From NCBI GenBank assembly GCA_040390045.1, contig JAZJZC010000003.1, positions 66,115-117,668 of the forward strand: DNA of 51,554 nucleotides, read 5' to 3'. The position numbers were made by a program, and so were the translations under genes. The DNA is from Patescibacteria group bacterium (lineage in GTDB: Bacteria > Patescibacteriota > Minisyncoccia > Phycocordibacterales > SIBU01). Below the pieces are notes generated by a model. The model did no database searches and had not been told where the DNA came from. It was given only the letters and a program-made list of their open reading frames with translations. This document shows positions 5,538-51,123 of the stretch, piece by piece; position 1 is the first letter of the stretch, and each line of letters begins with the position of its first letter.

Positions 5538-5697
5538 GTCGATATCATACCGCCATACCAATAAAACACGACTATTGACACTCTCTGTATTTAGTGCTAA
5601 TTTGTGGCCTGCAACAGAACCGCTCTCAAGCAAAAAACAGCTAACCCTAGTCTGGGCAAGTTGTTTTGTGCATAGGGAGCCAACACAAAGAAATAAA

Positions 5698-6099
5698 ATG
5701 AGTACAAGAGGAGATATGATGCGAGCAAACGCGGAGGCGGATAAGCAAACGACGAAGGCCCATCTTCGGAAGGAAATCCAGCGCTTATTGGGCCTCGTGA
5801 AGGAAGGTGGGCATTTGCGCGAGGCCAACGAAGAACTCAAGCGAAGCTGGAATGACGCTGAAGCTCGCGCCAGCCAGTCCATGCAAGAGTGCCGACAAGC
5901 GCAGAGTAACTTGACCGCCGTCACGACACGTTGCCAGGAGCTCGAAAAGGAACTCGAGCACCTCAAGGCAACGACCGCTGGCGAAATTCGGGGCCTGAGC
6001 AAAGCTCTGAGTATCGCCGTCGGCGCCGAAAAAGCATCGCCTTTTGCGAGCATTATTTCCGACATCCTGGGCGGTCTCAGAGATACATCCGGGGAGTAG
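5698..6099 (+). CDS. coiled-coil protein, function unknown (133 aa)
   Basis: ATG at 5698. The heptad-rich sequence EELKRSWNDAEARASQSMQECRQAQSNLTAVTTRCQELEKELEHLK is followed by an intrinsic terminator. It is visibly G+C-richer than its neighbours. Confidence 0.55.
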   Translation: MSTRGDMMRANAEADKQTTKAHLRKEIQRLLGLVKEGGHLREANEELKRSWNDAEARASQSMQECRQAQSNLTAVTTRCQELEKELEHLKATTAGEIRGLSKALSIAVGAEKASPFASIISDILGGLRDTSGE

Positions 6100-6127
6100 T
6101 TGGGTCAGATTTCCGTTAGTTTTATAC

Positions 6128-6160
6128 AACCACAGTTACATGCTGTGGTTTTTTGTTTTT
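6128..6160 (+). terminator. intrinsic terminator
   Basis: aaccacag-ttacatg-ctgtggtt followed by ttttttgtttttt. Confidence 0.7.
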
Positions 6161-6233
6161 TATAAGCCTCTCTAGACATTTACAAAAATCCAATTTTTGT
6201 GGTATTTATGTGGGTTAGTTACGGTTGAAAATT

Positions 6234-6437
6234 ATGAACTTTTTTAGTCGGCTAAGCATTGTTGGTTGGGCCATGATGCTCTTTGTCCCTTCGCTCTTTC
6301 TGGCGAACATTGTTCCTGCCATTGATCGATGGCTCGGACATCCAAACTATGCCGAGCAGTATGTGATGCTGTTTTTGGCGGCTTTGTTCTCTGGTCTTTT
6401 TGGTTTCGAAAAAGGTTCGAGTGATCCCCTGGGGTAG
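6234..6437 (+). CDS. small membrane protein (67 aa)
   Basis: ATG at 6234 and two hydrophobic helices. No homolog recognised. Confidence 0.4.
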   Translation: MNFFSRLSIVGWAMMLFVPSLFLANIVPAIDRWLGHPNYAEQYVMLFLAALFSGLFGFEKGSSDPLG

Positions 6438-6468
6438 TTTTCAAACTACTCCTTTTTCTTTTCACTAA

Positions 6469-7044
6469 TTACTTTCCAAGCAATTTCAACGCCTGTTTAA
6501 TTTTGTCACTTGGTTTCGTAATTTCTTTCGGCAGTTTTTTCAAAGCTTCACGAGCTTCACGTTCTTGGTAGCCCAGCGCCATAAGACCTTCAATGGCATC
6601 TGATTCGTCACGCATTACGCCGGCATCTTTTTCACTATCCAGAAAATCAATTTTGTCTCGGAGTTCTAGCACAATTTTCTCAGCAATTTTTTTACCGATG
6701 CCGGAAATTTTTGTCAGGTGCGCGGTTTCGCCCGTGCCAATCGCTTGTCTGAGGTTTTTAACCGTCGTGACACTCAAAATGCCGATAGCGGTTTTAGGAC
6801 CGATGCCGGAAATGGTAATAAGGAGTTCAAAAAAGTCGAGTTCAGTTTTTTCGATAAAGCCATACAGATCAAGCGCGTTTTCTCGGACGGCGAGATAGGT
6901 CCAGAGACTTACCCGCTCGGGATTTTTTCCGATGTTGTGTAAGGTTTCAGAAGAAGTGAAGACTTTATAGCCAACGCCGGCCGTTTCTAGGATAACGAAT
7001 CGTTCGTCGATATGGATTACTTTTCCGGTTAAGTGAGAAATCAT
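6469..7044 (-). CDS. ruvA: Holliday junction branch migration protein RuvA
   Basis: N-terminal MISHLTGKV..VILETAGVGYKV, HhH motifs ISGIGPKTA and ISGIGKKIAEKI, and a C-terminal domain III. Confidence 0.9.
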   Translation of the reverse strand: MISHLTGKVIHIDERFVILETAGVGYKVFTSSETLHNIGKNPERVSLWTYLAVRENALDLYGFIEKTELDFFELLITISGIGPKTAIGILSVTTVKNLRQAIGTGETAHLTKISGIGKKIAEKIVLELRDKIDFLDSEKDAGVMRDESDAIEGLMALGYQEREAREALKKLPKEITKPSDKIKQALKLLGK

Positions 7045-7164
7045 CGGCTAAGTATAAGGTATATTGTATTAAGTATAAAGTATTGAGATTGCCTTTTTCT
7101 CCGATATTTGTTAGTGTGTTTGAGCTAACAGCTACAAGCTAACAGCTGAAAGCCTCTTTAAACA

Positions 7165-7428
7165 ATGGCCATTACATCTTCAGCAAAAAAAGCCCACCGA
7201 GTATCGCTTAGAAAGCGAGTATTCAACACGCGTCGCGCTGATGCCGTCCGAAAAATTATCAAGGAAATCAAGACTCTTATCGGAGCTAAGAAAATTGCTG
7301 AAGCTCAGAAACTTGTACCGAAAGCGTATCAAGCAATCGACAAGGCAACCAAGATGAACACTCTCCACCGAAATACTGCTTCACGAAAGAAGTCTCAGGT
7401 GGCACGATGGTTTGCAGCAGCGAAATAA
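7165..7428 (+). CDS. rpsT: 30S ribosomal protein S20
   Basis: SAKKAHRVSLRKRVFNTRR...KAYQAIDKATKMNTLHRNTASRKKS. Confidence 0.9.
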   Translation: MAITSSAKKAHRVSLRKRVFNTRRADAVRKIIKEIKTLIGAKKIAEAQKLVPKAYQAIDKATKMNTLHRNTASRKKSQVARWFAAAK

Positions 7429-33567: not shown

Positions 33568-34509
33568 TTGGCAATGGCTCGCATACATTTCAACGACAAC
33601 GAAATAAAATCAGAGGGAGTGACCATTCTTAACGGCCGTGTGTTGCGCGACCAAGGTGTGGATAGGTTAAAAACCGCCATTGTGCAAAGCGGCAGGAAAC
33701 CGACCTTGGCCATCATACAGGTGGGGGATCTCGCTGAATCCAAAGCCTACATTGAGCAAAAAAGAAAATTTGCTGAGAAAATTGGCGCAGGTTTTTTTCA
33801 TACCCAATTTCCGAATGATGTTTCTCAGGCTGATCTCGAAAACGCTATTGAAAAACTAAATGTTGATCCGGGCATCCACGGTATTATTGTTCAGTTGCCG
33901 ATTCCAGAATCTTTCAACAAACAAAAAGTGATCGACACTATTAGTGTTTCGAAGGACACTGACGGACTCACATCAGAAAATAAAAAATTGCTTGAGTCTG
34001 GAAATTCCAAAGCGGTAATTCCCGCAACTGCACGAGGGGTTTTATCACTTCTGCGCGGATACGATGTTTCCGTTTCTGGGAAAAAAGTGACGGTAATAGG
34101 AAGATCGGCGTTAGTCGGCGCCCCGATTGCAACACTGTTGGCGCGAGAGGGGGCGGAAGTTACGGTTTGTCATCGGGAAACCAATAATGTTCCTGAAAAA
34201 AGTAGAAACGCTGAGATTCTGATTGTCGCCGTTGGCCACCCCCATTTTGTAACTGTCGAATACGTTTCGAAGGGTCAGGTGGTGGTTGACGTCGGTATCA
34301 ACTCAGTGGCTAGCAGCACGTTCAAACAAGAAAGTGTTGAAAAATTGGAGTATGAAATCCCAAAGCGGCAATTGGTAGGGGATGTCGATTTTGAAGCTGT
34401 TAAAAATATTGTCGCCGCCATTTCACCAGTTCCCGGCGGAGTGGGGCCGATGACAGTGCTTTCTTTATTCGAGAATCTGATTGAGGCAGCAGCGGTTGAC
34501 AATAGGTAA
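33568..34509 (+). CDS. folD: bifunctional methylene-THF dehydrogenase / methenyl-THF cyclohydrolase
   Basis: KPTLAIIQVGDLAESKAYIEQKRK, GIIVQLPIP, VIGRSALVGAPIA and PVPGGVGPMT. Confidence 0.9.
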   Translation: MAMARIHFNDNEIKSEGVTILNGRVLRDQGVDRLKTAIVQSGRKPTLAIIQVGDLAESKAYIEQKRKFAEKIGAGFFHTQFPNDVSQADLENAIEKLNVDPGIHGIIVQLPIPESFNKQKVIDTISVSKDTDGLTSENKKLLESGNSKAVIPATARGVLSLLRGYDVSVSGKKVTVIGRSALVGAPIATLLAREGAEVTVCHRETNNVPEKSRNAEILIVAVGHPHFVTVEYVSKGQVVVDVGINSVASSTFKQESVEKLEYEIPKRQLVGDVDFEAVKNIVAAISPVPGGVGPMTVLSLFENLIEAAAVDNR

Positions 34510-37536: not shown

Positions 37537-37546
37537 AAGCGCTCAA

Positions 37547-37722
37547 ACTATCCTTATGCGGAACGCAAAAGCCCTCTCCTGCGGAGGGCTTTTTAGTACT
37601 CGGCGGTTTCCGATACTGAATATTTTTTCTCAAAAATATTCAGTATCGGACCAAGCAAACCGCCTGCGAACATTCCGCACAAGGATAGTTCTCGCTAGGA
37701 TTTCGCGATAAGAATCGCGAAA
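37547..37722. repeat. nested palindromic element downstream of rplK
   Basis: Outer 17-bp arms at 37547-37563 and 37673-37689 (1 mismatch) enclose a terminator hairpin (37568-37592) and an 18-bp perfect hairpin (37610-37649). The latter is itself flanked by cggcggttt/aaaccgcct. A third hairpin tttcgcgat-aaga-atcgcgaaa lies at 37701-37722. Confidence 0.7.
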
Positions 37723-37791: not shown

Positions 37792-38207
37792 ATGAAAACT
37801 AAACTATACGTCGGTTGCGCCCTAGGAGGACTGACCGAAGACAATAAAAAAGAATTTCTTGAAAAGATTGTTCGGGTTAAAAATATTTTGAGAGGTCAAG
37901 GATTTGAAGTTTTAGAATTTGTGGGATTGGGAGAACACACACCTGCCGAGATTTACCAGCACGATATTTTGGGCTGTGTTGCCGCCTGCGATGCCATGCT
38001 TGCGATTTGTGATTATCCCTCCACGGGGATGGGCTATGACTAGCGACTGTTATTGAGAAGCGTGGCTTGCCAGTGCTCGCTGTGGCTCACACAGACTCAT
38101 TTGTTTCCAAAATTGTTCGCGGTATCTCTAAACCAAATTTTCATTTCGAGCGATACACGGATTTTGAAAAGGAAGTTCCGGCGCTAGTGGAAAAATATTT
38201 AAAATAA
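37792..38207 (+). pseudogene. nucleoside 2-deoxyribosyltransferase-like gene interrupted by a frameshift
   Basis: The first frame ends ...CDYPSTGMGYD-stop at 38041-38043. The reading continues from 38043 in another frame as ATVIEKRGLPVLAVAHTDSF...EKYLK, with the stop at 38205-38207. Restoring one nt in tatga-ctagcg would give GMGYELATVIEK. Confidence 0.65.
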
Positions 38208-38243
38208 GTAAAAATTTGTACGATATATCGTACAAATTTTTAC
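38208..38243. terminator. perfect 36-nt palindrome between convergent genes
   Basis: gtaaaaatttgtacgatat/atcgtacaaatttttac. Confidence 0.7.
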
Positions 38244-38297
38244 TTTTCCTTCTGCGTCTGTTCCGCGTACTTCAGCGTTCGTTCCGCACGGTCTCGC

Positions 38298-38951
38298 TTA
38301 TTTTTTCTCCTCAGGTGACTTGAGTACCGCGAAATCTGCTTTTAGTTTTCGAATTTGGCCTTTCATAATGAGTGTGGCTTCGTCGCGTTTTTCCCGACCG
38401 ACGCCATCGACGATGTCTTTTTTGTGGTATTTACTTTTACGTGCGTTGACTGCTTCAGTTAGTTCTTCAAAAACAATTTGGCAGACGCGCTCTCCAGGAT
38501 AGAGCCTGACCGCTTGCGAATGAGTGTTATTACGAAGAGGAAGAGTGAGTTGTCCCTCGTACCCTGAATCGATAATACCGGTAAGATCGAGAGAAAGTCC
38601 TTTGCGGTTGGTGGATGATCTTGGGTAGAGCACCGCCATCAAATCTTTAGGAATTTTAATAGTTTCAAGTGTTGAAACCAATACGTATTCGTGAGGCAAC
38701 AGTTCAAAATATTGTCCCTCTTCAAGTTCCACAACATCGAAAAAGCCGCTGTTATTTTTATCGAAGTGGGTGTTGTCGAGCGACTCTCTGCCGTTCGCAG
38801 TCAGGTGCCAAATTTTAGGAATAAGAAATGTAAATCCCAATCGAAGGTCAACGGCGTGTTCCTGCAGTTGCATGCTGTCGAGGTTTGGGCTAAAAGTGAT
38901 TTCACCTTTCTCGACGCGTTCGATAATTTGTTTTTTGGTTATGACGCTCAT
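38298..38951 (-). CDS. dCTP deaminase (Dcd) family protein lacking the catalytic Glu
   Basis: AVDLRLG, PRSSTNRKGL and GIIDSGYEGQLTLPLRN. An ungapped local match to E. coli IDPGWSGCIVLEFYN places Pro138 (codon 38538-38540) at Glu138. Confidence 0.75.
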   Translation of the reverse strand: MSVITKKQIIERVEKGEITFSPNLDSMQLQEHAVDLRLGFTFLIPKIWHLTANGRESLDNTHFDKNNSGFFDVVELEEGQYFELLPHEYVLVSTLETIKIPKDLMAVLYPRSSTNRKGLSLDLTGIIDSGYEGQLTLPLRNNTHSQAVRLYPGERVCQIVFEELTEAVNARKSKYHKKDIVDGVGREKRDEATLIMKGQIRKLKADFAVLKSPEEKK

Positions 38952-38998
38952 GGGAAGGGTGTAGGGGTTAGGGTTTAGTTAGACCGGTTTATTTTATA

Positions 38999-39496
38999 CT
39001 AAGATTTGCGGATGTAAACTTGATAATCAGCGTCAAATGGGTTTTTATCATCCTTCGCTTCAAATTTTGATTCGGTAAGTTTCCAGATTGTTGGATCAAG
39101 GGGAGGGAAGAAGGCGTCACCTTCAATCGTTGTGTGAATGAGTGTTCGGTATACCTTGTCGGTTTTTGGAAAAGCCTCAGCATACAAGTGAGCTCCACCA
39201 ATATTAAATACCTCTGTTTCGGCTGAGGTTTTTTCAAGGGCTTCTTCAAAAGAATGAACAACGATACATCCAGGCGCTTTGAAATCCGCATTACGTGTTA
39301 CGACAATATTAACTCGATCGGGAAGGGGTTTGCCCAAACTATTCATGATGGATTCGTACGTATTTCGGCCCATAATCACCGTATGGCCTTTTGTTATTGC
39401 GGCAAAATGTTTTTGATCGCTAGGCATTCGCCAAGGGATTTTATTACCTTGTCCGATGACGTTATTTTCTGACGTGGCGACAATTATCGATAGCAT
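38999..39496 (-). CDS. folA: dihydrofolate reductase
   Basis: IIVATSENNVIGQGNKIPWRMPSDQKHF, IMGRNTYESI and FNIGGAHLY. Confidence 0.9.
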   Translation of the reverse strand: MLSIIVATSENNVIGQGNKIPWRMPSDQKHFAAITKGHTVIMGRNTYESIMNSLGKPLPDRVNIVVTRNADFKAPGCIVVHSFEEALEKTSAETEVFNIGGAHLYAEAFPKTDKVYRTLIHTTIEGDAFFPPLDPTIWKLTESKFEAKDDKNPFDADYQVYIRKS

Positions 39497-39498
39497 AG

Positions 39499-40335
39499 TT
39501 ATAAAGCGATTTTGAGGCCTTTAATGGCTTCGTGTGGTTTGTATTGATTAGTTAGATTTTCTACAATTTCTTCCACCAATTTTTTATCTTGTTTTTCAGC
39601 ACGGTCGAAGGCATTTTTTGGCAAGCTTAAAACAATTTTTGGATGATTGTTTTCGCGTTTGATCATTTCGTCAGCTGCAAAATAGTGATTGTCGTAAATG
39701 TGCGCGTTGGAAATTGAATGCGAGTAAATTCCGGGACGAACTCCTAATTTTTGCGCCAGAATGTGAGCGAGTAGAGCAAAACCGGCGACGTCAGAGGGAA
39801 ATCCCAGAACGATATCGTTTGATCGGACGATGTTGTGAAAATTTAGTCGTCCGCCAATAATATTTACGGTAAATGTATATGGGCAGGGAACATTTTTTTT
39901 CACAGCTCCACCAAGCCCATCTTGCGCCGGATCCCAAGTCACCACCACGCCGTGTCGGGAGCTCGGTTCTTTTTGCAAAAGTTTAATGAGTAATCCAAGC
40001 TGGTCGCGACCGAAGTGTTTCCGCCATCGATAGCCATAGGCAACAGTGACCACATCTCCCGGGTTGGTAAACATGTCCCAAATTTTTGTAAATTGTCGCA
40101 GGAAAATTTCGGGCTTCCTTGCGCCGGTAATAAACCAAACTTGTTCGGCCACAAACATTGGTATTGGAATTTTCCGCAAGGTCAAAAGAGGGAAGCCATC
40201 TTTTTCAAGATCAATGGAAAAATGCATGCCGGGAATAGCTTTGGTTTCGTGTCCGGTGCGCTCGTTCATCTCAGAGATACCCTTGGTTTGGATATCTTTC
40301 AGGATGTTTTTATAGACTTCATCGAATATTGCCAT
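39499..40335 (-). CDS. thymidylate synthase (ThyA) family enzyme with dCMP-type specificity residue
   Basis: RTGHET, EQVWF, AYGYRWR, nucleophile Cys151 (codon 39883-39885), RSND and LGFPSDVAGFALL. Asp182 (codon 39790-39792) aligns without gaps to E. coli Asn177. The C-terminal IKGLKIAL is TS-like. Confidence 0.8.
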   Translation of the reverse strand: MAIFDEVYKNILKDIQTKGISEMNERTGHETKAIPGMHFSIDLEKDGFPLLTLRKIPIPMFVAEQVWFITGARKPEIFLRQFTKIWDMFTNPGDVVTVAYGYRWRKHFGRDQLGLLIKLLQKEPSSRHGVVVTWDPAQDGLGGAVKKNVPCPYTFTVNIIGGRLNFHNIVRSNDIVLGFPSDVAGFALLAHILAQKLGVRPGIYSHSISNAHIYDNHYFAADEMIKRENNHPKIVLSLPKNAFDRAEKQDKKLVEEIVENLTNQYKPHEAIKGLKIAL

Positions 40336-40407
40336 GATTTGTTGAATTGAATTATAGTGCCTTTATGTTGCTCTCGCAATCAAAAAACGTTTTGCTATAA
40401 TGGGCCC

Positions 40408-40911
40408 ATGAATATTCCTTTTCCCTACATGCCCGAAGGACGAACCGTTAAATTTGTCCCTGCTCATGATCGATTTATGCGCGCGGCTGAAACAGCGTGC
40501 AGGGAACTTTCGACAGATTATAACCATCCGAATGGCGCAGTCTTGGTTAAAGACGGAACGGTAATTGCTCGCGCCGCAAATCAGTCTGGTTTGAAGAATA
40601 AAAAAATGCTTCAACTTCATAAAGCCGGTTGGTGTGTGCGCCGCATTTTAAAAATTCCTTCAGGGCAAAAATATTGGCTTTGCCCGGGATGCGCGTCATC
40701 AAAAAATCATTCCGAAACGCGTGTCGTCAAAACTGCTCAAAAACAAGGGCTGGATACTACAGGGGCTGATGTCTATCTGTGGGGACACTGGTGGTGTTGT
40801 GAACCGTGTTGGAATTCGATGATCGCCGGCGGTATCAAAGATGTCTATCTTCTTGAGGGCAGTGATAAGCTTTTTAATCCTAAATTTCCGGAAAATATAA
40901 TTGGAAAGTAG
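40408..40911 (+). CDS. CMP/dCMP-type zinc deaminase with Cys-rich insert
   Basis: HSE (HxE) and CCEPCWNSM (PCxxC-like) zinc motifs. There is an extra CVRR...CPGC segment between them. Start set at the ATG at 40408. Confidence 0.7.
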   Translation: MNIPFPYMPEGRTVKFVPAHDRFMRAAETACRELSTDYNHPNGAVLVKDGTVIARAANQSGLKNKKMLQLHKAGWCVRRILKIPSGQKYWLCPGCASSKNHSETRVVKTAQKQGLDTTGADVYLWGHWWCCEPCWNSMIAGGIKDVYLLEGSDKLFNPKFPENIIGK

Positions 40912-41079
40912 GAAAAGGGCCCGTCTAGGGTCCTTTTTCTTTTGCCAAAAGGCTGTGTTAGAATGGTTTTACTATGGTATAAGTTTTTCCAAATCTGATT
41001 TTATTTCCCGATGCTCCGTACTCGGAGTTCGGGATCCCGATCGCTTCGCATCGGGACTTAATTCTTTTAATCTATCCAC

Positions 41080-42252
41080 ATGAAAGACAAACAAATTGAA
41101 AAACTTATAAAACTCGAAGAAGCTCGGCAGAAGAAGGTGATCAATCTTATCGCTTCGGAAAATTATGTTTCAAAAGATGTGTTGACAGCACTCGGTTCAA
41201 AACTGACCGACAAGTATGGGGAAGGGTATCCAGGAAAAAGATATTATCGCGGTACAAAGGTTGTCGATGAGGTTGAATTGCTCGCGCAAAAACGCGCGTT
41301 GGAACTTTTTGATCTTGATCCGCAACGGTGGAGTGTCAACGTCCAGCCGCTTTCAGGTTCGCCTGCCAACTTCGCAGTGTATTCCGCGCTTGTGCCACCA
41401 GGAGGGAAAATTATGGGTATGACACTCTCGCATGGAGGACATCTCACTCACGGTCAACCAGTTTCTATGACTGGAAAATTTTGGATGCAAGTGCCGTATG
41501 GACTTTCAAAAGAAACTGAACAACTTGATTATGAAGAAGTAAAAAAAATTGCTGTTGCTGAAAAGCCCAACATTATCGTTGCGGGTTTTACCGCCTACGC
41601 GCACGTGGTAGATTTCAAAAAGTTTCGAGAAATTGCAGACGCTTCAGGAGCAATTCTCATGGTAGACATGTCGCATTTCGCGGGACTTGTAGCAGGAAAA
41701 GTGTATCTGTCACCATTTTTGTATGCTGACATAGTGACTACTACTACGCACAAAACACTTCGCGGTCCGCGTTCGGCCATGATTTTTTCCAAAATTGACG
41801 AACGCGAGTTTAACAAAAAAATAGACAAAATTATTATTCCAGGTCTTCAAGGTGGCCCACACTTCAATCAAATTGCCGCGGTGGCTGTTGCTCTCAAAGA
41901 AGCCAATACGCCCGCATTCAAAAAGTACGCGTCCCAAATAATTAAAAATGCGAAAGTGCTAGCGGACGAACTTGCCAAACTTGGCTGGAGAATTGTTGAA
42001 GGTGGGACAGAAACCCATTTGTTGCGCGTTGATGTTTGGCAAGACGGGAAAGGAATTAGCGGGCGAGAAGCGGCAGATAAACTGGAAGCGGCGGGAATTA
42101 TTGTTAACGAAAATACGATTCCTTTCGATACTAGAAAACCCATGGATCCATCGGGCATTCGTCTCGGTACGCCAGCAGAAACGACACGCGGAAAAAAAGA
42201 AAAAGATTTTCGCAAGATTGCGCAGAAAATAGATGAAGTTTTGAGAAAATAA
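41080..42252 (+). CDS. glyA: serine hydroxymethyltransferase
   Basis: LIASENYVS, GYPGKRYY, LSHGGHLTHG and TTTTHKTLRGPR (PLP lysine). Confidence 0.95.
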   Translation: MKDKQIEKLIKLEEARQKKVINLIASENYVSKDVLTALGSKLTDKYGEGYPGKRYYRGTKVVDEVELLAQKRALELFDLDPQRWSVNVQPLSGSPANFAVYSALVPPGGKIMGMTLSHGGHLTHGQPVSMTGKFWMQVPYGLSKETEQLDYEEVKKIAVAEKPNIIVAGFTAYAHVVDFKKFREIADASGAILMVDMSHFAGLVAGKVYLSPFLYADIVTTTTHKTLRGPRSAMIFSKIDEREFNKKIDKIIIPGLQGGPHFNQIAAVAVALKEANTPAFKKYASQIIKNAKVLADELAKLGWRIVEGGTETHLLRVDVWQDGKGISGREAADKLEAAGIIVNENTIPFDTRKPMDPSGIRLGTPAETTRGKKEKDFRKIAQKIDEVLRK

Positions 42253-42254
42253 CT

Positions 42255-42647
42255 ATGAATGAAATTCCCCAAAATGTTCCGGAACAACCTATCAATGTAT
42301 ATCTTACACAACTTCGTAAAGCCCTCGACTCAAAGGACGCAACGCTTCTTGGGTCAGTCATAAATGGAATTCAGAGAAATGTTCAAGGGACAGATAGGAC
42401 AAGTTTTTCACCTTTGGATGATGAGGATATCCGTACGCTACTGGAAACCGGAAGAGCAGAGATAAACGTAGGTACTGGAACACATGGTCAGCGTATCTAT
42501 ATTAAGGATGCGGAATTACATATGCCTCCTGGCGGCCCTAGGGTTGAAAAGGCAAAAGTTGTAATCGAACAGAGGATGAACTTCAAACGTTTATTTGATT
42601 TGCCTCTTGATTTATCCGACACTGAAGACTTGCGGGTTAGATTTTAA
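42255..42647 (+). CDS. hypothetical protein (130 aa), orphan
   Basis: The ATG lies 2 nt after the glyA stop, which suggests translational coupling. No motif recognised. Confidence 0.5.
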   Translation: MNEIPQNVPEQPINVYLTQLRKALDSKDATLLGSVINGIQRNVQGTDRTSFSPLDDEDIRTLLETGRAEINVGTGTHGQRIYIKDAELHMPPGGPRVEKAKVVIEQRMNFKRLFDLPLDLSDTEDLRVRF

Positions 42648-42694
42648 TTACGTGAAAAGCATGAAAAAAGTAAATATATAATTATCGAAATAAT

Positions 42695-43015
42695 ATGAAT
42701 CCAGAACAGCCTGAAAATTTGGGCAAGGTTTCTAAGAGTGCTATGTTTCATTCCCAAGAGGATTTTCAAAAGGATGAAGCCATGCGTGAATCGGCGTATA
42801 GGAAAATGGAAAAATATGCCACTGATCTGGGTTGCCAATTTAGTAGCTACAATGGTTCTCGTTATATTGAATTTAAAACCTGGCAGGAAGCATTAGATTT
42901 TCAGGAGTTCTGCGATACAGAATTCGGTTTTAAGGTTAAGGTGAATGACCCAGCAAAAACTGACGGTAGGTTTTTAAAGCCAGGATACAAAGTGTTTCCT
43001 GTGTTTGAGAGTTAA
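42695..43015 (+). CDS. hypothetical protein (106 aa), orphan
   Basis: Clean ORF, acidic/aromatic. No motif recognised. Confidence 0.45.
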   Translation: MNPEQPENLGKVSKSAMFHSQEDFQKDEAMRESAYRKMEKYATDLGCQFSSYNGSRYIEFKTWQEALDFQEFCDTEFGFKVKVNDPAKTDGRFLKPGYKVFPVFES

Positions 43016-43101
43016 ACAAAAAAACCAAATTTTGAGCAAAATCCTAAGAAATTGCGAAAAAAATAGAAGAGGGTATGATGGATGAAGTCGAAATTTGACC
43101 T

Positions 43102-43311
43102 ATGATTATTGATTTTTTGATTGATCTTCCAGGGAAAATTTTCAATTTTCTTTGGACTTGTGGCGCGCCCAAACCTCCGAGCTCGCGCCCGCTTTGGCAG
43201 GTTTTGGAAGATGAAGGTTCTGGACAATCTCTCAACCTGACTGGGTTTACTGAAGGCGACCGTCAAAAGGCGGGCGAGATAGCTCGCGAAAGAGCCCGCT
43301 CGGCAAAGTAA
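43102..43311 (+). CDS. small hypothetical protein (69 aa)
   Basis: It ends in the same taa-plus-terminator module as the next gene (taattttcaaagacgcactccgtt at 43309-43332 and 43781-43804). Confidence 0.35.
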   Translation: MIIDFLIDLPGKIFNFLWTCGAPKPPSSRPLWQVLEDEGSGQSLNLTGFTEGDRQKAGEIARERARSAK

Positions 43312-43316
43312 TTTTC

Positions 43317-43360
43317 AAAGACGCACTCCGTTCACGGTTCGGTTCGCGTCTTTTTCTTTT
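43317..43360 (+). terminator. intrinsic terminator, module copy 1
   Basis: aaagacgc...gcgtcttt followed by a T-run. Confidence 0.7.
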
Positions 43361-43420
43361 GATTTTTTTCAAGGTGGATACATCTTCGTGATATAGTTTT
43401 GTTAGATTTTTTAGTTTTTT

Positions 43421-43783
43421 ATGAGCAAAAGAAGATGGCGGAGGTACAGCGAATGTGATTTGGGGAAGGAGTTTATGGAGCTTGCTGAGAAATTAGGTTT
43501 GACCAAAACAAAACTAGCAAAGGCCCTTGGAGTTACTCCAAATTGTATTTTTAAGATTTTTCGTGGTGATCAACCAAGTATCCGACTCGTCGTTTCTTTA
43601 AGGGCGCTGGTACTTTTACACGAATCTTCACAGCCGGTTGCTATCGCTCGACTGCTCACAAACCTTTCACATGAAGGCCGAGTCCAGGTCGGAGGACAAC
43701 TCACCGGAAGTGGGATGCAACTTTTGGAATTATTCGATCCAACGACTCTGAGCCCGAGCGCGGAAGACGATTACCAAATTTAA
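43421..43783 (+). CDS. XRE-like helix-turn-helix protein
   Basis: LAEKLGLTKTKLAKALGVTPNCIFKIFRGDQ. Confidence 0.6.
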   Translation: MSKRRWRRYSECDLGKEFMELAEKLGLTKTKLAKALGVTPNCIFKIFRGDQPSIRLVVSLRALVLLHESSQPVAIARLLTNLSHEGRVQVGGQLTGSGMQLLELFDPTTLSPSAEDDYQI

Positions 43784-43788
43784 TTTTC

Positions 43789-43830
43789 AAAGACGCACTC
43801 CGTTTATGGTTCGCGTCTTTTTTCTTTTTT
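43789..43830 (+). terminator. intrinsic terminator, module copy 2
   Basis: aaagacgc-actccgtttatggttc-gcgtcttt followed by a T-run. Confidence 0.75.
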
Positions 43831-43894
43831 AAACTTGAGGAAGTTTAGGTCGCGTGGTAGTGTTCAAACAGCTTACAGAACAACTCATGCGTTT

Positions 43895-44215
43895 ATGGCA
43901 AAACACAGGATTGATATTGAGTTAGCAGGGCTCGCCAGGGAGTTTCAGCAACTTTTTCTCATGAGCGGGTGGAATCAAAGAGAGTGCGCCCAGCATCTTG
44001 GGGTATCCTTTACCCACATTAATGGAATTCTTAATGGTGGCGGCCAACCATCCGTAACTCTGGTTAAGTTAATTAAGTTGATGGTTGAAGGACCGACAAA
44101 AACAGACTACAGATCACTAATTCTAGTTCTTGAAAAGTTTCCTGTCGCAACTCGTGCAGAAATAATAGGGTCACTTGAGACTTTACTTCGCAGTAGTCTC
44201 GCTCGAAAGTTTTGA
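43895..44215 (+). CDS. XRE-like helix-turn-helix protein (paralog of 43421-43783)
   Basis: SGWNQRECAQHLGVSFTHINGILNGGGQPSVTLVKLIKL has the same layout as RGDQPSIRLVVSLRAL in the upstream gene. ATG at 43895. Confidence 0.6.
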   Translation: MAKHRIDIELAGLAREFQQLFLMSGWNQRECAQHLGVSFTHINGILNGGGQPSVTLVKLIKLMVEGPTKTDYRSLILVLEKFPVATRAEIIGSLETLLRSSLARKF

Positions 44216-44219
44216 TTTG

Positions 44220-44247
44220 AAAGACGCCACCTCGCGTCTTTTTTCTT
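44220..44247 (+). terminator. intrinsic terminator, module copy 3
   Basis: aaagacgc-cacctc-gcgtcttt followed by a T-run. Confidence 0.75.
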
Positions 44248-44258
44248 TGTCGGTTACA

Positions 44259-44915
44259 ATGTCGTGTATGACGCAGAAAGGAAAATTTATTGTGATCGAT
44301 GGTGGGGAAGGGGCAGGGAAAAGTACCCTGATGGGTTTTTTGCCGGAAATTTTTCCCTCGACGCCGAGCTCGGGACAAGCCACATTTCTAGCTACACGCG
44401 AGCCTGGAGGTTCTCCGTTTGCTGAAGAAATTCGCAATTTGATGCTTTCTCGTCCCGAATCAAAAAATGCTTCGCCTGAAACTCAGTTTGGTCTTGTGTG
44501 GGCCGCGCGACACGACCACCTTCAGAAAAAAATTATTCCAGCACTTAATGAGGGAGTTCATGTTATTTCTGATCGCTTCGATTCTTCAACCTACGCCTAT
44601 CAAATTTTTGGCCAAGAGGCGCCGCAATTAGAAAAACTTTTTTGGGATATTCGTAATATTTACTTACGTGATGCGCAGCCTGACCTCTATATTTTTCTCG
44701 ATATCGATCCTGCGATTGGCCTCAAGCGTGTGGCAGAACGTCGCAAGGAGACAGACCATTTTGATCAGCGGAAATTGGATTTTCACCAGAGAATTCGCGA
44801 AGGCTATTTAGAATTTCTAAAAAAAGTACCAAGCGTGATTATTGATTCGAGTGGCACAATTCCGGAGGGGAAGGAAAAGTTTTTTGAGGCAATAAAAAGC
44901 GCCCTATTAAAATAA
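44259..44915 (+). CDS. tmk: thymidylate (dNMP) kinase
   Basis: FIVIDGGEGAGKST, TREPGG, DRFDSSTYAYQ. Start moved to the ATG at 44259 (or 44268), downstream of the terminator. Confidence 0.85.
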   Translation: MSCMTQKGKFIVIDGGEGAGKSTLMGFLPEIFPSTPSSGQATFLATREPGGSPFAEEIRNLMLSRPESKNASPETQFGLVWAARHDHLQKKIIPALNEGVHVISDRFDSSTYAYQIFGQEAPQLEKLFWDIRNIYLRDAQPDLYIFLDIDPAIGLKRVAERRKETDHFDQRKLDFHQRIREGYLEFLKKVPSVIIDSSGTIPEGKEKFFEAIKSALLK

Positions 44916-44919
44916 TTGT

Positions 44920-45342
44920 ATGGAAATTAAAATTAAACGATTACACCCCGACGCCAAATTGCCGAGTTACGCTCATCCGGGAGACGTGGGGCTTGATCTG
45001 TTTTCGTTGGAGGAGGTGACGGTAGCTCCCGGAGCGCACCATCGTTTTGCTAACGGTTTCGCTTTAGAATTTCCAGAGGGTTACGCCGCTATCGTCAAAG
45101 ACAAGGGAGGTATTTCAAAAGCAGGACTTCATTGTATGGGCGGAGTGTTTGATGCAGGATTTCGTGGCGAGTACAATGTGCATCTGGTAAATTTAGGTGA
45201 CAAAGCGTACACCTTTGAAAAAGGTGATAAAGTGGCACAACTCGTGATTTTTCCGGTGGCAATTGCTAAGCTTGTTGAGGCGAAGGAACTTTCAGATAGC
45301 AGTAGGGGGATGGGGCAGTTTGGGAGCACTGGAAGAAAGTAG
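44920..45342 (+). CDS. dut: trimeric dUTPase
   Basis: GDVGLDL, GGVFDAGFRGEY and RGMGQFGSTG. Motif 2 is atypical (KDKGG instead of PRSG). Confidence 0.8.
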   Translation: MEIKIKRLHPDAKLPSYAHPGDVGLDLFSLEEVTVAPGAHHRFANGFALEFPEGYAAIVKDKGGISKAGLHCMGGVFDAGFRGEYNVHLVNLGDKAYTFEKGDKVAQLVIFPVAIAKLVEAKELSDSSRGMGQFGSTGRK

Positions 45343-47517: not shown

Positions 47518-50500
47518 ATGGACGAAAATCTCAAGAAAAATCCACTAGTGGAAAACGAAGAAAAAACTCTGAAATTTTGGCGTGAAAATAGTATTTTCGA
47601 GAAATCTTTGGCCAAAGAGTCGCCAAAAGGTGAGTTTGTTTTCTATGAAGGCCCCCCAACAGCCAACGGTCGCCCCGGTATTCATCATCTCGAGGCGAGA
47701 GCTTTTAAAGATGCCATTCCTCGATACAAAACCATGCAAGGGTTCCATGTTCGTCGCAAAGGCGGTTGGGATACGCACGGGCTTCCCGTTGAGTTGGCGG
47801 TTGAAAAAGAACTTGGCCTTAAATCAAAAAAAGAAATTGAAGTATACGGCATCGAGGCTTTTAATAAAAAATGCAAAGAAAGTGTTTGGAAATTTGTCAG
47901 TGAGTGGGAAGAATTTACCCAGCGCATCGGCTACTGGGTTGATCTGAAAAATCCTTATGTTACTTACAAACCAGAGTACATTGAATCGGTCTGGAATATT
48001 GTTAGTAAAATAAACGAACAGGGACTTTTGTATAAAGATTACAAGGTGGTGCCGTGGTGTCCGAGGTGTGGCACCGGGCTTTCGAGCCACGAACTGGCAC
48101 AGGGGTATGAGGATGTGAAGGATTTGTCGGTTACAACTAAGTTCAAAGTTAAAAGTGAAAAGTTTAAAAGTAAAGACGGGGAGGAAACCTATTTGTTGGC
48201 ATGGACGACTACGCCGTGGACACTTCCTGGAAATGTCGGACTAGCTGTTGGAGAAAAAATTACCTACCAGCTCGTTGTATCGGAAGGGTTACAGTATATC
48301 GTTGCCAAGGAGCGAGCAGCAACAGTTTTCAAAGAAAAAACTTTTGAAGTAGTTCAAGATATTTCAGGCAAAGAACTTATTGGTTTGGAATACGAACCAC
48401 TGTACCCATTTCTCAAAGATAATCTTTCCGAGACTGAAAAACCAAAATTGGCCAATGCGTTTAAGGTTTATCCTGCGAATTTTGTAACCACAACCGATGG
48501 AACTGGAATTGTGCACACTGCAGTGATGTATGGAACGGATGACTTTGAGCTTGGCAATAAAGTTGGCTTACCGAAACATCACCTGGTCAAAGAAGACGGA
48601 ACCTTTAAAGAAGAAGTTGGTTTTTTGGCGGGGAAATTTGTGAAGCCCGCCCGAACGACTGAAGCCAGTGTTCAGTCGGGCGGGGATGAAGGCGTCGACA
48701 TTTTGATTATAAAAGATTTAGCCGGACGTGGGTTGTTATTCTCAAAGGAAAAATATTCTCACAGTTATCCGCACTGTTGGCGCTGTCACACCCCACTTAT
48801 CTATTTCGCCCGAGATTCTTGGTACATCAAGATGTCTGCGCTTCGCGAAAAATTACTTTCAGAAAATGAAAAAATAAATTGGGAACCCGATTATATTAAG
48901 CATGGCCGGTTTGGTGAATGGTTGAAGGACGTAAAGGATTGGGCAATTTCCCGAGAGCGATATTGGGGAACGCCGTTACCTGTTTGGAAAACTTCAGCTA
49001 CTTCGGGAAACGCCGAAAAATATGTCGTAATCGGATCAATTGCTGATCTCAAAAAGTATGCCAAAAAATCTGGCAATACCTATTTCGTAATGCGTCACGG
49101 CGAGTCGGTTCACAATCTTGAGTGGAGGATCAGTACTACGCACGACAATCGTGAGGATTGTCTGACTGAAAAAGGTAAAGCTCAGGCTTTAGCTTCAGCG
49201 CAAACCCTCAAGGATAAAAAAATCGATATGATCGTAGTTTCGCCGTTCAAAAGAACCAGAGAAACTAGTGAAATTGTGCGAGAGGCTTTGGGTTTGTCAC
49301 CAGAAAAAGTAACCCTCGATGAACGATTGCATGAGATCGGGGTGTATTCCTTTGAAGGAAAAACATGGGAAGAGTACCATGAGGTTTTTCCTAAAACTGA
49401 AGAATATTTTACCGCCAAGCGTGACGGTGACGAATCATATCTTGATGCGAAGATAAGAATGATGAAAGTTCTGTACGAGTACGAATCTAAATACCAAGGA
49501 AAAAATATTCTGTTTGTCACTCATGGAGGCCCAGGCTGGCTTCTTAATGCCGGTTCCCATGGACTATCACTATCTGAAACCTACAGTGCGATTAGTTCAA
49601 TTGATAACGCTCGACAGGATGGAATTAAAAACGCTGAAATTCGAGAGCTTGATTTTGTTCCTCTGCCACATAATGAAAATTATGAACTCGATCTCCATCG
49701 ACCGTTCATCGACGCAATCGAACTTATCGATGAAAATGGCGCGCCTATGACTCGCGCTAAAGAAGTGATGGATGTTTGGTTTGATTCAGGGGCAATGCCG
49801 TTTGCTCAGGACGCGGATCTACGCCGAACAGACGCAGAATCCGCCGCGGCGGACGGAAAAAAATCGTGGGACGATATTTCTTACCCTGCGGATTTTATTT
49901 CTGAGGCCATCGACCAGACTCGCGGTTGGTTTTATACGTTGCACGCAATTGGCGTACTGACCGGGAAGGGAAGAGCCTACAAAAATGTTATTTGCCTTGG
50001 ACATATTTTGGATGCCGAAGGCAAGAAGATGTCGAAATCTGTCGGGAACGTGGTTGACCCGCACAAAATGATTGAAAAGTATGGCGCAGACCCATTACGA
50101 TTTTGGATGTACAGTGTTAATCAACCCGGAGAGCCAAAAAATTTTGACGAAAAAACGGTAGATGAGATCGTGAAAAAGGTTTTTAATCTCACATCGAACG
50201 TTCTCACTTTCTACCAGTTGTATGCAGAAACAGAACACGGATCACAGAACACAGAACACGAAAAGCAAATCAGTAACAACGTTTTAGACCAATGGATACT
50301 CACTCGACTCAATCAACTCGTTGCCGAAGTTACAACCTCTCTCAATTCTTATAAATTACTCGAACCAACTCGGGCGATCCGTGATTTTATCGCCGACCTA
50401 TCGCAGTGGTATTTGCGGCGATCGCGCGACAGATTTAAGGGGGAAGATGAAGCGGATAAAAATTCTGCTCTACAAACTACAAATTACGTACTGCTGACTC

Positions 50501-51123
50501 TTGCGAAAGTCATGGCTCCATTTACTCCATTTTTTGCTGATTTCTTGTACAAAGGAGTTGAGGGAAAAGAGCAAAGTGTTCATTTGGAGAAATGGCCCGA
50601 AGAAAGTTTAAAGTTTAAAGTTGAAGGTTTAAAAGTTCTGGAGCAAATGGAAGAAGTGAGAAAAATTGTTTCGCTTGGATTAGAACAACGAGCAAAGGCT
50701 GGGATAAAAGTTCGACAACCGCTCCAAAAATTAAAAATTAAAAGTGAAAAGTTAAAAATTTCTGACAAGGATTTTCTCGGGCTCGTGAAAGATGAAGTGA
50801 ACGTCAAAGAAGTCGTCATTGATCTCAGTCTGTCGACCGAAGTAGAACTCGATCTCAACATCACTCCCGAACTTAAAGAAGAGGGAAGTGTTCGAGAATT
50901 TGTTCGCGCGATACAGGATTTGAGAAAGACCAGTGGATTTAATCCAGGTGAATTAGCTGAGCTTACTGTTGATGCGGACGAAAAAACTTTACAATTTTTA
51001 CAGAAATACGAGAAAGATCTCATCAAATCGACTCAATTAAAGAAAATTCAATATGCCTCTGTGTCAGGCGGGACAGAAGTTTCTCTCGAGGAAGCAAAGG
51101 TAAAAATTTCTATTTCTAAATAA
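47518..51123 (+). CDS. ileS: isoleucine--tRNA ligase (type 2) with inserted histidine-phosphatase domain
   Basis: PPTANGRPGIHH (HIGH), WTTTPWTLPGN, WAISRERYWGTPLPVW, DVWFDSGAMPF and KMSKSVGN. At 1201 aa it is long for IleS. Confidence 0.9.
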   Translation: MDENLKKNPLVENEEKTLKFWRENSIFEKSLAKESPKGEFVFYEGPPTANGRPGIHHLEARAFKDAIPRYKTMQGFHVRRKGGWDTHGLPVELAVEKELGLKSKKEIEVYGIEAFNKKCKESVWKFVSEWEEFTQRIGYWVDLKNPYVTYKPEYIESVWNIVSKINEQGLLYKDYKVVPWCPRCGTGLSSHELAQGYEDVKDLSVTTKFKVKSEKFKSKDGEETYLLAWTTTPWTLPGNVGLAVGEKITYQLVVSEGLQYIVAKERAATVFKEKTFEVVQDISGKELIGLEYEPLYPFLKDNLSETEKPKLANAFKVYPANFVTTTDGTGIVHTAVMYGTDDFELGNKVGLPKHHLVKEDGTFKEEVGFLAGKFVKPARTTEASVQSGGDEGVDILIIKDLAGRGLLFSKEKYSHSYPHCWRCHTPLIYFARDSWYIKMSALREKLLSENEKINWEPDYIKHGRFGEWLKDVKDWAISRERYWGTPLPVWKTSATSGNAEKYVVIGSIADLKKYAKKSGNTYFVMRHGESVHNLEWRISTTHDNREDCLTEKGKAQALASAQTLKDKKIDMIVVSPFKRTRETSEIVREALGLSPEKVTLDERLHEIGVYSFEGKTWEEYHEVFPKTEEYFTAKRDGDESYLDAKIRMMKVLYEYESKYQGKNILFVTHGGPGWLLNAGSHGLSLSETYSAISSIDNARQDGIKNAEIRELDFVPLPHNENYELDLHRPFIDAIELIDENGAPMTRAKEVMDVWFDSGAMPFAQDADLRRTDAESAAADGKKSWDDISYPADFISEAIDQTRGWFYTLHAIGVLTGKGRAYKNVICLGHILDAEGKKMSKSVGNVVDPHKMIEKYGADPLRFWMYSVNQPGEPKNFDEKTVDEIVKKVFNLTSNVLTFYQLYAETEHGSQNTEHEKQISNNVLDQWILTRLNQLVAEVTTSLNSYKLLEPTRAIRDFIADLSQWYLRRSRDRFKGEDEADKNSALQTTNYVLLTLAKVMAPFTPFFADFLYKGVEGKEQSVHLEKWPEESLKFKVEGLKVLEQMEEVRKIVSLGLEQRAKAGIKVRQPLQKLKIKSEKLKISDKDFLGLVKDEVNVKEVVIDLSLSTEVELDLNITPELKEEGSVREFVRAIQDLRKTSGFNPGELAELTVDADEKTLQFLQKYEKDLIKSTQLKKIQYASVSGGTEVSLEEAKVKISISK
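49081..49620 (+). other. histidine phosphatase (PGAM/CobC-like) domain embedded in IleS
   Basis: YFVMRHGESVHN (RHGxxxxN), SPFKRTRETS, LHEIGVYSFEGKTW and FVTHGG. It lies between the conserved WGTPLPVW and DLHRPFID segments. Confidence 0.7.

Follow-up and report, generated by a model that had tools for sequence, protein, structure and literature searches.

A conserved Parcubacteria gene cluster as a candidate thymidylate pathway through 5-methyl-deoxycytidine nucleotides

By which route would a bacterium make thymidylate when the thymidylate synthase (TS) homolog in its genome carries the active-site aspartate of enzymes that act on cytosine nucleotides? This question is raised by a cluster of pyrimidine and folate genes (37792-45342) in a 51,554-nucleotide stretch of contig JAZJZC010000003.1, hereafter the window. 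The window comes from a housekeeping region in the genome of a member of the Parcubacteria, within the candidate phyla radiation (CPR); it encodes tRNAs, ribosomal proteins, aminoacyl-tRNA synthetases, a Mur ligase, RuvA and Fpg at an even base composition of about 43% GC, and its nearest relatives are metagenome-assembled genomes of Candidatus Taylorbacteria. The cluster follows SIMPL-secE-nusG-rplK and is followed by argS, and it combines the TS homolog with a dihydrofolate reductase (DHFR), a Dcd-like protein (DcdL), a zinc deaminase, a serine hydroxymethyltransferase (SHMT), a deoxythymidine monophosphate (dTMP) kinase (Tmk) and a deoxyuridine triphosphatase (dUTPase, Dut). Gene families were assigned by Pfam, with further scoring against NCBIfam, and every gene that the initial annotation had listed for this interval was recovered at its stated coordinates. 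The answer that we favour, with moderate confidence and from comparative sequence analysis, is that this clade of Parcubacteria makes its thymidine (dT) nucleotides from deoxycytidine (dC) nucleotides by way of 5-methyl-dC nucleotides, and not from deoxyuridine monophosphate (dUMP).

An Asp-type TS homolog in a conserved gene module

In a HMMER alignment to solved TS structures, the segment GFPSDVAGFALL of the TS homolog pairs with 'VPFNIASYALL', and MAFFT places its Asp182 at the position of Escherichia coli N177, which confirms the Asp-type TS noticed in the initial annotation. The catalytic Cys151 (E. coli C146) is invariant in the alignment, a proline (Pro152 in the window protein) stands at E. 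coli His147, and further substitutions put Val at Gln165 and His at Arg127 (E. coli numbering). Among 83 aligned sequences, comprising the window, 80 genomes and the two phage proteins from Xp12 and RcRudolph, the aspartate was present in all 83; it was also found in 115 of 120 protein clusters formed at 90% identity, the motif search giving no match in the other five. The proline at position 147 is likewise invariant across the clade. Positions 177 and 147 have been identified as the most discriminating between TS homologs of modified-cytosine and unmodified contigs (PMC8670742), and the exchange of Asn for Asp at 177 is the classic switch in specificity from dUMP to deoxycytidine monophosphate (dCMP) (PMC8670742; PMC6400193).

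The C-terminus of the protein bears on the reaction that would follow. The TS-type tail, 'YxPxxxIxGLxI(V/A)L', is a conserved feature, with every one of the 83 sequences stopping at the same alignment column. As seen from the structure of T4 dCMP hydroxymethylase (dCH), TS uses this tail to close its active site during hydride transfer, and hydroxymethylases do not have it (PMC6400193). Methylation, moreover, gives dihydrofolate (DHF), hence a DHFR is needed, whereas T4 dCH gives tetrahydrofolate (THF) (PMC6400193). The T4 enzyme ends about 45 residues earlier than the TS homolog, with which it shares 22% identity. Because the tail is conserved and the linkage to DHFR is near-universal, a reductive dCMP methyltransferase is favoured, and we predict that the TS homolog is a dCMP C5-methyltransferase that produces DHF.

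The placement of the protein within its family is in line with this prediction. When 1.84 billion representatives were searched exhaustively with HMMER, 13,263 TS-family proteins were found; among the 150 representatives (50% identity) nearest to the TS homolog, 128 carry Asp and 16 Asn, the Asn-type relatives begin only at about rank 67, and Asp goes together with a residue other than His at position 147. In a comparison set of 4269 phage records with a TS-family match, the best matches came from Xp12 and its relatives, PaMx74-like phages and RcRudolph, at 35-39% identity over the full length. The TS homologs of Xp12 and RcRudolph carry the same pair as the window protein, D at 177 and P at 147, and the Xp12 enzyme further has in common with it AYGYRWRKHFGRDQL and 'WDPAxDGLG..KNVPCP'. 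The DNA of Xp12 contains 5-methylcytosine (5mC) in place of all cytosine. A ThyX or a second ThyA was not found in the 1.2 Mb searched (the 51-kb window and ±10 kb flanks), where the ThyX query was approximate. Methylation of a dC nucleotide, as the initial annotation had supposed, is thus supported by the invariant Asp177, Pro147 and tail, by the preponderance of Asp-type relatives and by the Xp12-type phage matches.

One scan of species-representative genomes gave 80 related loci from Taylor-, Kaiser-, Adler-, Colwell-, Nomura-, Morani- and other Parcubacteria, and linkage was counted over the loci with enough flanking sequence. The deaminase gene is divergently adjacent to the TS gene in 73 of 75 loci, always on the opposite strand and with a median gap of 64 nt (73 loci), and in 61 of 61 loci DcdL lies on the TS strand, downstream of that gene. 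A DHFR or divergent DHFR occurs within 6 kb of TS in 58 of 59 loci, SHMT within 5 kb in 49 of 51, Tmk within 5 kb in 30 of 51 and Dut within 6.5 kb in 14 of 49; as for the flanking genes, argS is found within 8 kb in 32 of 48 loci and rplK within 6.5 kb in 29 of 44. The order of the core genes is shared by a whole bacterial class and is not a chance juxtaposition. Since residues and gene order are both conserved across the related genomes, the cluster is an ancestral core module. An insertion behind rplK, as considered in the initial annotation, does not fit these data, as the order rplK-cluster-argS recurs in Taylor-, Kaiser-, Adler-, Colwell-, Nomura- and other Parcubacteria. It had also been pointed out that the cluster lies where rplA-rplJ-rplL would be expected. 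The absence of rplA stands, but OD1-L1 Parcubacteria lack ribosomal protein L1 (PMC5220378), so that the missing gene is a trait of this group, and the cluster is ancestral. The same annotation had held that a wide distribution of this gene order together with Asn-type ThyA would speak against its proposal; the order is widespread, and the TS homolog is always of the Asp type. We infer that the conserved core, consisting of the deaminase, TS-DHFR-DcdL, SHMT and often Tmk and Dut, is the housekeeping thymidylate pathway of OD1-L1/Paceibacteria-type Parcubacteria.

Partner enzymes and the candidate order of reactions

In DcdL, the segment 'GQLTLPLRN' pairs with 'GQITLELFN', which puts a proline at the catalytic Glu138 of E. 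coli Dcd and agrees with the Glu-less Dcd of the initial annotation. This proline is present in 73 of 73 aligned sequences and in 119 of 120 protein clusters (90% identity). DcdL scores 122 bits with TIGR02274, over the cut-off of 92.8, and its AlphaFold2 (AF2) model (predicted local distance difference test, pLDDT, 73) matches the E. coli and Mycobacterium tuberculosis enzymes in Foldseek with target-normalised template modelling (TM) scores of 0.75-0.89, the model matches including Dcd as well as bifunctional Dcd-dUTPase structures. E. coli dUTPase is the second-best alignment partner of the catalytic core: residues 100-170 align with its motifs 2-4 (PRS, G-I-IDS-x-Y-x-GQL, PGERxxQ), and these motifs are invariant among the aligned DcdL sequences. 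Motif 5 (RGxxGFGS[TS]G) was not found in the DcdL C-terminus. DcdL and its orthologs carry a Lys/Glu-rich C-terminal extension of 40-50 residues (about 175-217), which is not in E. coli Dcd and is modelled at low confidence. Because the dUTPase motifs are kept and the deaminase glutamate is lost, DcdL should hydrolyse a pyrimidine deoxynucleoside triphosphate without deaminating it, and we predict that it is a (d)NTP diphosphatase, which probably converts deoxycytidine triphosphate (dCTP) to dCMP.

The zinc deaminase starts at the ATG at 40408, as in its homologs. Its zinc motifs H101-S-E103 and C131-E-P-C134 are invariant in the aligned homologs, and HxE, CxxC and an extra CxGC insert occur together in 77 of 77 aligned sequences and in 117 of 120 protein clusters (90% identity). 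The AF2 model (pLDDT 84.7) has as its top Foldseek matches 7FH4, 1VQ2, 5C2O, 2W4L and 4P9E (E = 5e-6 to 1e-4), with TM scores of about 0.45-0.6 that denote a modest similarity; the closest solved folds are the PBCV-1 dCMP/dCTP deaminase (7FH4), T4 Cd (1VQ2), a Streptococcus mutans enzyme and human DCTD. The score against ComEB (TIGR02571) is 22.6 bits, below the cut-off of 219, and a sequence search of the PDB returned weak matches only, to guanine deaminase and RibD. Homology to the Xp12 and RcRudolph deaminases was considered, but BLAST gave no significant match and the superfamily motifs alone are in common. In phages, 5-methyl-dCMP (5mdCMP) is formed in vivo by the Xp12 TS homolog and by five of seven metagenomic ones for which dCMP had been predicted as substrate, and the cis-linked enzymes of the dCMP-deaminase family prefer 5mC substrates, their role probably being to supply dT nucleotides from 5-methyl-dC nucleotides (10.1101/2024.12.05.627091). 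By analogy, and from its linkage to the Asp-type TS homolog, we predict that the Parcubacteria enzyme prefers a 5-methyl-dC nucleotide and deaminates it to the dT nucleotide.

We propose the following route because the phage findings are analogous and the residue changes in Parcubacteria are co-ordinated. DcdL, with its dUTPase-type residues, would hydrolyse dCTP to dCMP, which the Asp-type TS homolog would methylate at C5, with 5,10-methylene-THF as donor of both carbon and hydride, to give 5mdCMP and DHF. DHFR and SHMT would then regenerate methylene-THF, with FolD encoded nearby, and the zinc deaminase would turn the 5-methyl-dC nucleotide into the dT nucleotide, at the level of either the mono- or the triphosphate. 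Tmk would phosphorylate dTMP to dTDP, and Dut would serve only to sanitise dUTP. From the residues, the folds of the predicted models, the gene linkage and the place of the TS homolog among Asp-type members, all observed directly, we infer every substrate assignment and the phosphorylation level at which deamination may occur. In outline this agrees with the initial annotation, in which the Asp-type TS methylated a dC nucleotide, SHMT and DHFR cycled the folate and the product was either deaminated to dTMP or passed by a kinase toward 5-methyl-dCTP (5mdCTP), a scheme that the comparative evidence favours.

The candidate pathway can be set against several known systems. Its closest counterpart is the module of Xp12/PaMx74 phages, the gene modules of Xp12 and RcRudolph reading hydrolase-TS-dCMP deaminase-DHFR: both have an Asp177/Pro147 TS homolog with C-terminal tail, the same linked activities (pyrophosphatase, methylase, deaminase and DHFR) and the same proposed logic, in which 5-methyl-dC nucleotides are deaminated to dT nucleotides. 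In contrast to the phage modules, that of Parcubacteria is cellular, chromosomal and class-ancestral, sitting beside secE-nusG-rplK; its pyrophosphatase has the Dcd/dUTPase fold and is neither MazG nor HAD, its deaminase forms a separate and very divergent clade with the CxGC insert, and SHMT, Tmk and Dut are added. With the classical route through Dcd, Dut, ThyA, FolA, GlyA and Tmk, it shares the protein families, the folate cycle and the thyA-folA linkage, but has Asp for Asn in TS, a Dcd without catalytic Glu and an obligatorily linked zinc deaminase. The predicted order of reactions is accordingly hydrolysis, methylation and deamination, whereas the classical order is deamination, hydrolysis and methylation. 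The T4 gp42 set (gp56 dCTPase, cd, frd, gp1) likewise comprises an Asp-type protein of the TS fold, a dCTPase, a dCMP deaminase and a DHFR; unlike the Parcubacteria TS homolog, to which it is 22% identical, T4 dCH lacks the C-terminal tail and makes THF and not DHF, and a homology of DcdL to gp56 was rejected, as the two show no similarity. Archaeal Dcd-like dUTPases and bifunctional Dcd-dUTPases (Methanocaldococcus jannaschii, M. tuberculosis, Bacillus halodurans, Thermococcus) resemble DcdL in fold and hydrolytic motifs. The bifunctional enzymes keep the Glu, whereas DcdL has the invariant Pro and a Lys-rich C-terminal extension, and its context beside an Asp-type TS is new.

Asp-type relatives of the TS homolog are also found on phage-like contigs. 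Two IMG/VR contigs (L083 and L084) encode, at about 5600-7250 of each locus, TS homologs 59-61% identical to that of the window, next to phage-like neighbours such as a YqaJ recombinase, an RNA ligase, PNKP and a dUTPase. In L084, whose TS homolog is 59% identical, the gene for a deaminase homolog (34% identical, again with a CPGC insert) overlaps with the start codon of TS, and a HAD hydrolase comes after it. The presence of the Asp-type TS on both contigs and the deaminase-TS overlap on L084 suggest that the module has been exchanged between Parcubacteria and phages.

Several observations weigh against a route through 5-methyl-dC nucleotides. The Asp-type TS might retain, or have regained, activity on dUMP, and the canonical Dut in the cluster indicates that a pool of dUTP/dUMP exists. 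Papers on CPR metabolism treat the TS homolog gene as an ordinary thyA. At two loci the adjacent deaminase is missing, and because the deaminase shares only 18-21% identity with the enzymes of Xp12 and RcRudolph and with characterised dCMP deaminases, its preference for a 5-methyl substrate can only be surmised. As to DcdL, archaeal Dcd-like proteins that lack the Glu act as dUTPases; dCTP fits the genomic context, dUTP and 5mdCTP are alternative candidate substrates, and the sequence alone cannot tell them apart.

In a first alternative reading, the cluster is a classical dTMP regulon, with the deaminase converting dCMP to dUMP, DcdL and Dut being two dUTPases, the TS homolog using dUMP, or both dUMP and dCMP, in spite of its Asp, and DHFR, SHMT and Tmk acting in their usual roles. 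The families of all the genes are indeed those of the classical pathway, the public annotation reads thymidylate synthase, dCTP deaminase and deoxycytidylate deaminase, the TS homolog scores above the TIGR03284 cut-off (126 vs 108 bits), and dUTPases are known among Glu-less Dcd-like proteins of archaea, a Dut gene being present as well. We nevertheless consider a classical regulon unlikely, and it runs counter to all that is known of position 177. Asp177 and Pro147 are invariant in a TS homolog that lies amid Asp-type relatives. Cytosine nucleotides are the substrates of the characterised natural Asp-type members considered here (T4 dCH, Xp12 and MilA), and replacing Asn by Asp shifts mutant enzymes to dCMP. 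The TS homolog also misses five NCBIfam ThyA equivalog cut-offs widely (for example NF002497, 141 vs 327 bits), and a classical regulon leaves the co-ordinated loss of the Dcd glutamate unexplained.

If dCMP is methylated, the product need not be destined for thymidylate. In pre-replicative DNA modification as in phage Xp12, DcdL would clear dCTP, 5mdCMP would be raised to 5mdCTP and incorporated into genomic DNA, where 5mC would replace much or all of the cytosine, and the deaminase would divert a part to dT. Such a scheme would account for a module composed as in fully 5mC-substituted phages (pyrophosphatase, Asp-type TS, deaminase, DHFR) and for the nucleotide kinase within the cluster, and the phage deaminase mSCD-B5 acts on 5mdCTP and not on 5mdCMP, which implies a pool of 5mdCTP. 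However, to our knowledge no cellular organism replaces its cytosine at the nucleotide level, and the literature that we found on CPR or on 5-methyl-dC nucleotides describes no such DNA in CPR, although their genomes have been widely sequenced. The kinase, furthermore, scores as an ordinary dTMP kinase and is linked in only 30 of 51 loci, and no dedicated 5mdCMP kinase was identified, so that we regard this use of the module as improbable. The combined case, in which Parcubacteria use the module for thymidylate and in addition incorporate 5mdCTP, such that the genomic cytosine of a free-living or episymbiotic cellular lineage would be largely or wholly 5mC, from the nucleotide pool onward, and DcdL would serve in dCTP clearing, we hold to be scarcely probable. 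Least credible, and in our judgement very improbable, is that the TS homolog is a hydroxymethylase of dCMP (or CMP), feeding a 5-hydroxymethyl pyrimidine pathway, for example toward 5-hydroxymethyl-dC (5hmdC) or, after deamination, 5-hydroxymethyl-deoxyuridine, or a release of bases as by MilA/MilB with the Ndt-like protein. Asp-type TS homologs do include T4 dCH and MilA, the Ndt-like gene beside the cluster is reminiscent of the MilA/MilB pairing, and linked deaminases of phages act on 5hmdC too. Against it stand the conserved tail that hydroxymethylases lack, the linkage to DHFR, which points to the production of DHF, and an identity of 22% to T4 dCH as compared to 35-37% to the Xp12 methyltransferase; the Ndt-like gene, moreover, is confined to about 11 of 80 loci and disrupted in the window, and the organism would be left without an evident source of dTMP. 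Methylation of dCMP followed by deamination to a dT nucleotide hence remains the reading that we favour.

Layout of the locus, control elements and strain-specific genes

Table 1. Genes and sequence elements of the locus, in window coordinates.
Feature	Position	Strand	Evidence and remarks
FolD (methylene-THF dehydrogenase/cyclohydrolase)	33568-34509	+	3 kb upstream of the cluster, 5' of SIMPL-secE-nusG-rplK
Nested palindromic spacer	37546-37722		Between rplK and the cluster; inverted repeats
Ndt/DUF4406-like small gene	37792-38207	+	One-base frameshift near 38040
Bidirectional terminator-like hairpin	38206-38245		Perfect 18-bp stem, T-runs on both strands
Dcd-like gene (DcdL)	38298-38951	-	Pfam DCD PF22769, 1.5e-34, 119.7 bits
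DHFR, FolA type	38999-39496	-	Pfam DHFR_1, 1.2e-55
TS homolog	39499-40335	-	Pfam Thymidylat_synt PF00303, 5.7e-52, 176.9 bits
Sigma-70-like matches	40329-40358 (+); 40379-40351 (-)		10/12 each
Divergent control region	40336-40407		72 nt, between TS operon and deaminase operon
Zinc deaminase	40408-40911	+	Pfam dCMP_cyt_deam_1 PF00383, 8.2e-10, 38.9 bits (cut-off 25)
SHMT	41080-42252	+	Pfam SHMT, 3.6e-156
Strain-specific insert, five open reading frames (ORFs)	42255-44215	+	Without counterpart in 80 related loci
orf130	42255-42647	+	Orphan in the insert
orf106	42695-43015	+	Orphan in the insert
orf69	43102-43311	+	Orphan in the insert
HTH_3 protein, first	43421-43783	+	Pfam HTH_3
HTH_3 protein, second	43835-44215	+	Pfam HTH_3
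Terminator-like hairpin	44219-44242		3' of the insert
Tmk	44259-44915	+	Pfam Thymidylate_kin, 6.3e-37; TIGR00041, 138.8 bits (cut-off 83.25)
Dut, canonical trimeric	44920-45342	+	Pfam dUTPase, 9.1e-23; NF001862, 111 bits (cut-off 103)

The features of the locus are collected in Table 1. Owing to the position of FolD, the one-carbon theme reaches past the cluster itself. Dut has the C-terminal motif 5 of its family (RGMGQFGSTG).

Between the TS and deaminase operons, within the 72-nt control region, the two sigma-70-like matches that are the best of the region stand back to back. These are consensus matches only, and their arrangement is compatible with a co-regulation of both operons. At the far end of the TS operon, a hairpin that is likely a bidirectional terminator separates the convergent Ndt-like and DcdL genes. 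The nested palindromic element that the initial annotation had described between rplK and the cluster is real, with outer 18-nt arms, 8-nt arms and perfect 19-nt arms nested inside, and with an RNA fold of -91.4 kcal/mol (z = -10.9); the same spacer also holds a terminator-like hairpin (37567-37593) and an extra hairpin (37701-37722). It is single copy within the window and was not found in the 80 related loci. A known RNA or repeat family was rejected as its identity, given no Rfam match, one copy and no conservation, and this strain-specific palindrome probably serves in transcription termination or insulation.

The two frames of the Ndt-like gene jointly match an intact ortholog of 134 aa at the same position in a related locus (L066:6488-6892), so that the gene of the window is either a pseudogene or the product of an assembly error. 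A different ORF (L003:12257-12685) had been taken for the full-length gene and was discarded as the wrong one. The label 'Ndt-like' is weak, since the Pfam match to DUF4406 (E=0.0096) is below the curated cut-off and the intact L066 protein has no Pfam family at E<=1e-3. Where present, the gene lies between DcdL and rplK, and its place beside an Asp-type TS recalls MilB/MilA, an N-glycosidase and a CMP hydroxymethylase.

Between SHMT and Tmk lies the strain-specific insert, whose ORFs gave no tblastn match in the 80 related loci. For the three orphans, orf130, orf106 and orf69, no Pfam, NCBIfam, PADLOC or PHROGs family was found, and orf130 was not found in viral contigs. The orphan and HTH genes, which the initial annotation had counted among the components of the cluster, do not belong to it: a role in a conserved system or as cluster regulators was rejected, as they have no homolog in the 80 loci and relatives carry other inserts. 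The two HTH genes had further been called paralogous; both are indeed HTH_3 proteins, but they share 33% identity over just 54 aa (E=3e-5). The SHMT-Tmk-Dut interval appears as a hot spot for strain-specific inserts, one relative having CofD-family and HAD-like genes there (L003:4776-6259). Anti-phage dCTP-deaminase defence genes were also considered and dismissed, as PADLOC returned nothing for DcdL, for the deaminase or for the orphans. Outside the cluster, a 1201-aa isoleucyl-tRNA-synthetase-like protein (47518-51123, plus strand) contains a complete histidine-phosphatase domain (His_Phos_1, 2.4e-32, residues 523-689), which sits between the two halves of the class-I catalytic domain.

Meaning for Parcubacteria and related phages

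The chemistry considered here is already known from phages. In the literature searched, we found no description of the route in a cellular lineage, nor of the CPR 'ThyA' as an Asp-type protein. What would be new is that a phage-type dC-methylation route has become fixed as a chromosomal thymidylate pathway, with a Dcd-derived pyrophosphatase and a deaminase family of its own. Should this hold, a housekeeping pathway of cells and a toolkit by which phages modify DNA would be linked, with evolution having run in either direction, and the deaminases would form a compact candidate family of 5mC-selective enzymes with a possible use in methylation sequencing. The finding also raises the question of whether Parcubacteria cells contain pools of 5-methyl-dC nucleotides, or even 5mC-substituted DNA. 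The labels 'thymidylate synthase', 'dCTP deaminase' and 'deoxycytidylate deaminase' would be functionally wrong throughout the clade, and metabolic reconstructions of CPR would need correction. Above all, the methyl group of thymine would be created on cytosine and not on uracil, dTMP would not derive from dUMP, and an essential step in the supply of DNA precursors would be wired differently in a very large group of uncultured bacteria, whose species-level genomes number at least in the hundreds and whose protein clusters number in the thousands.

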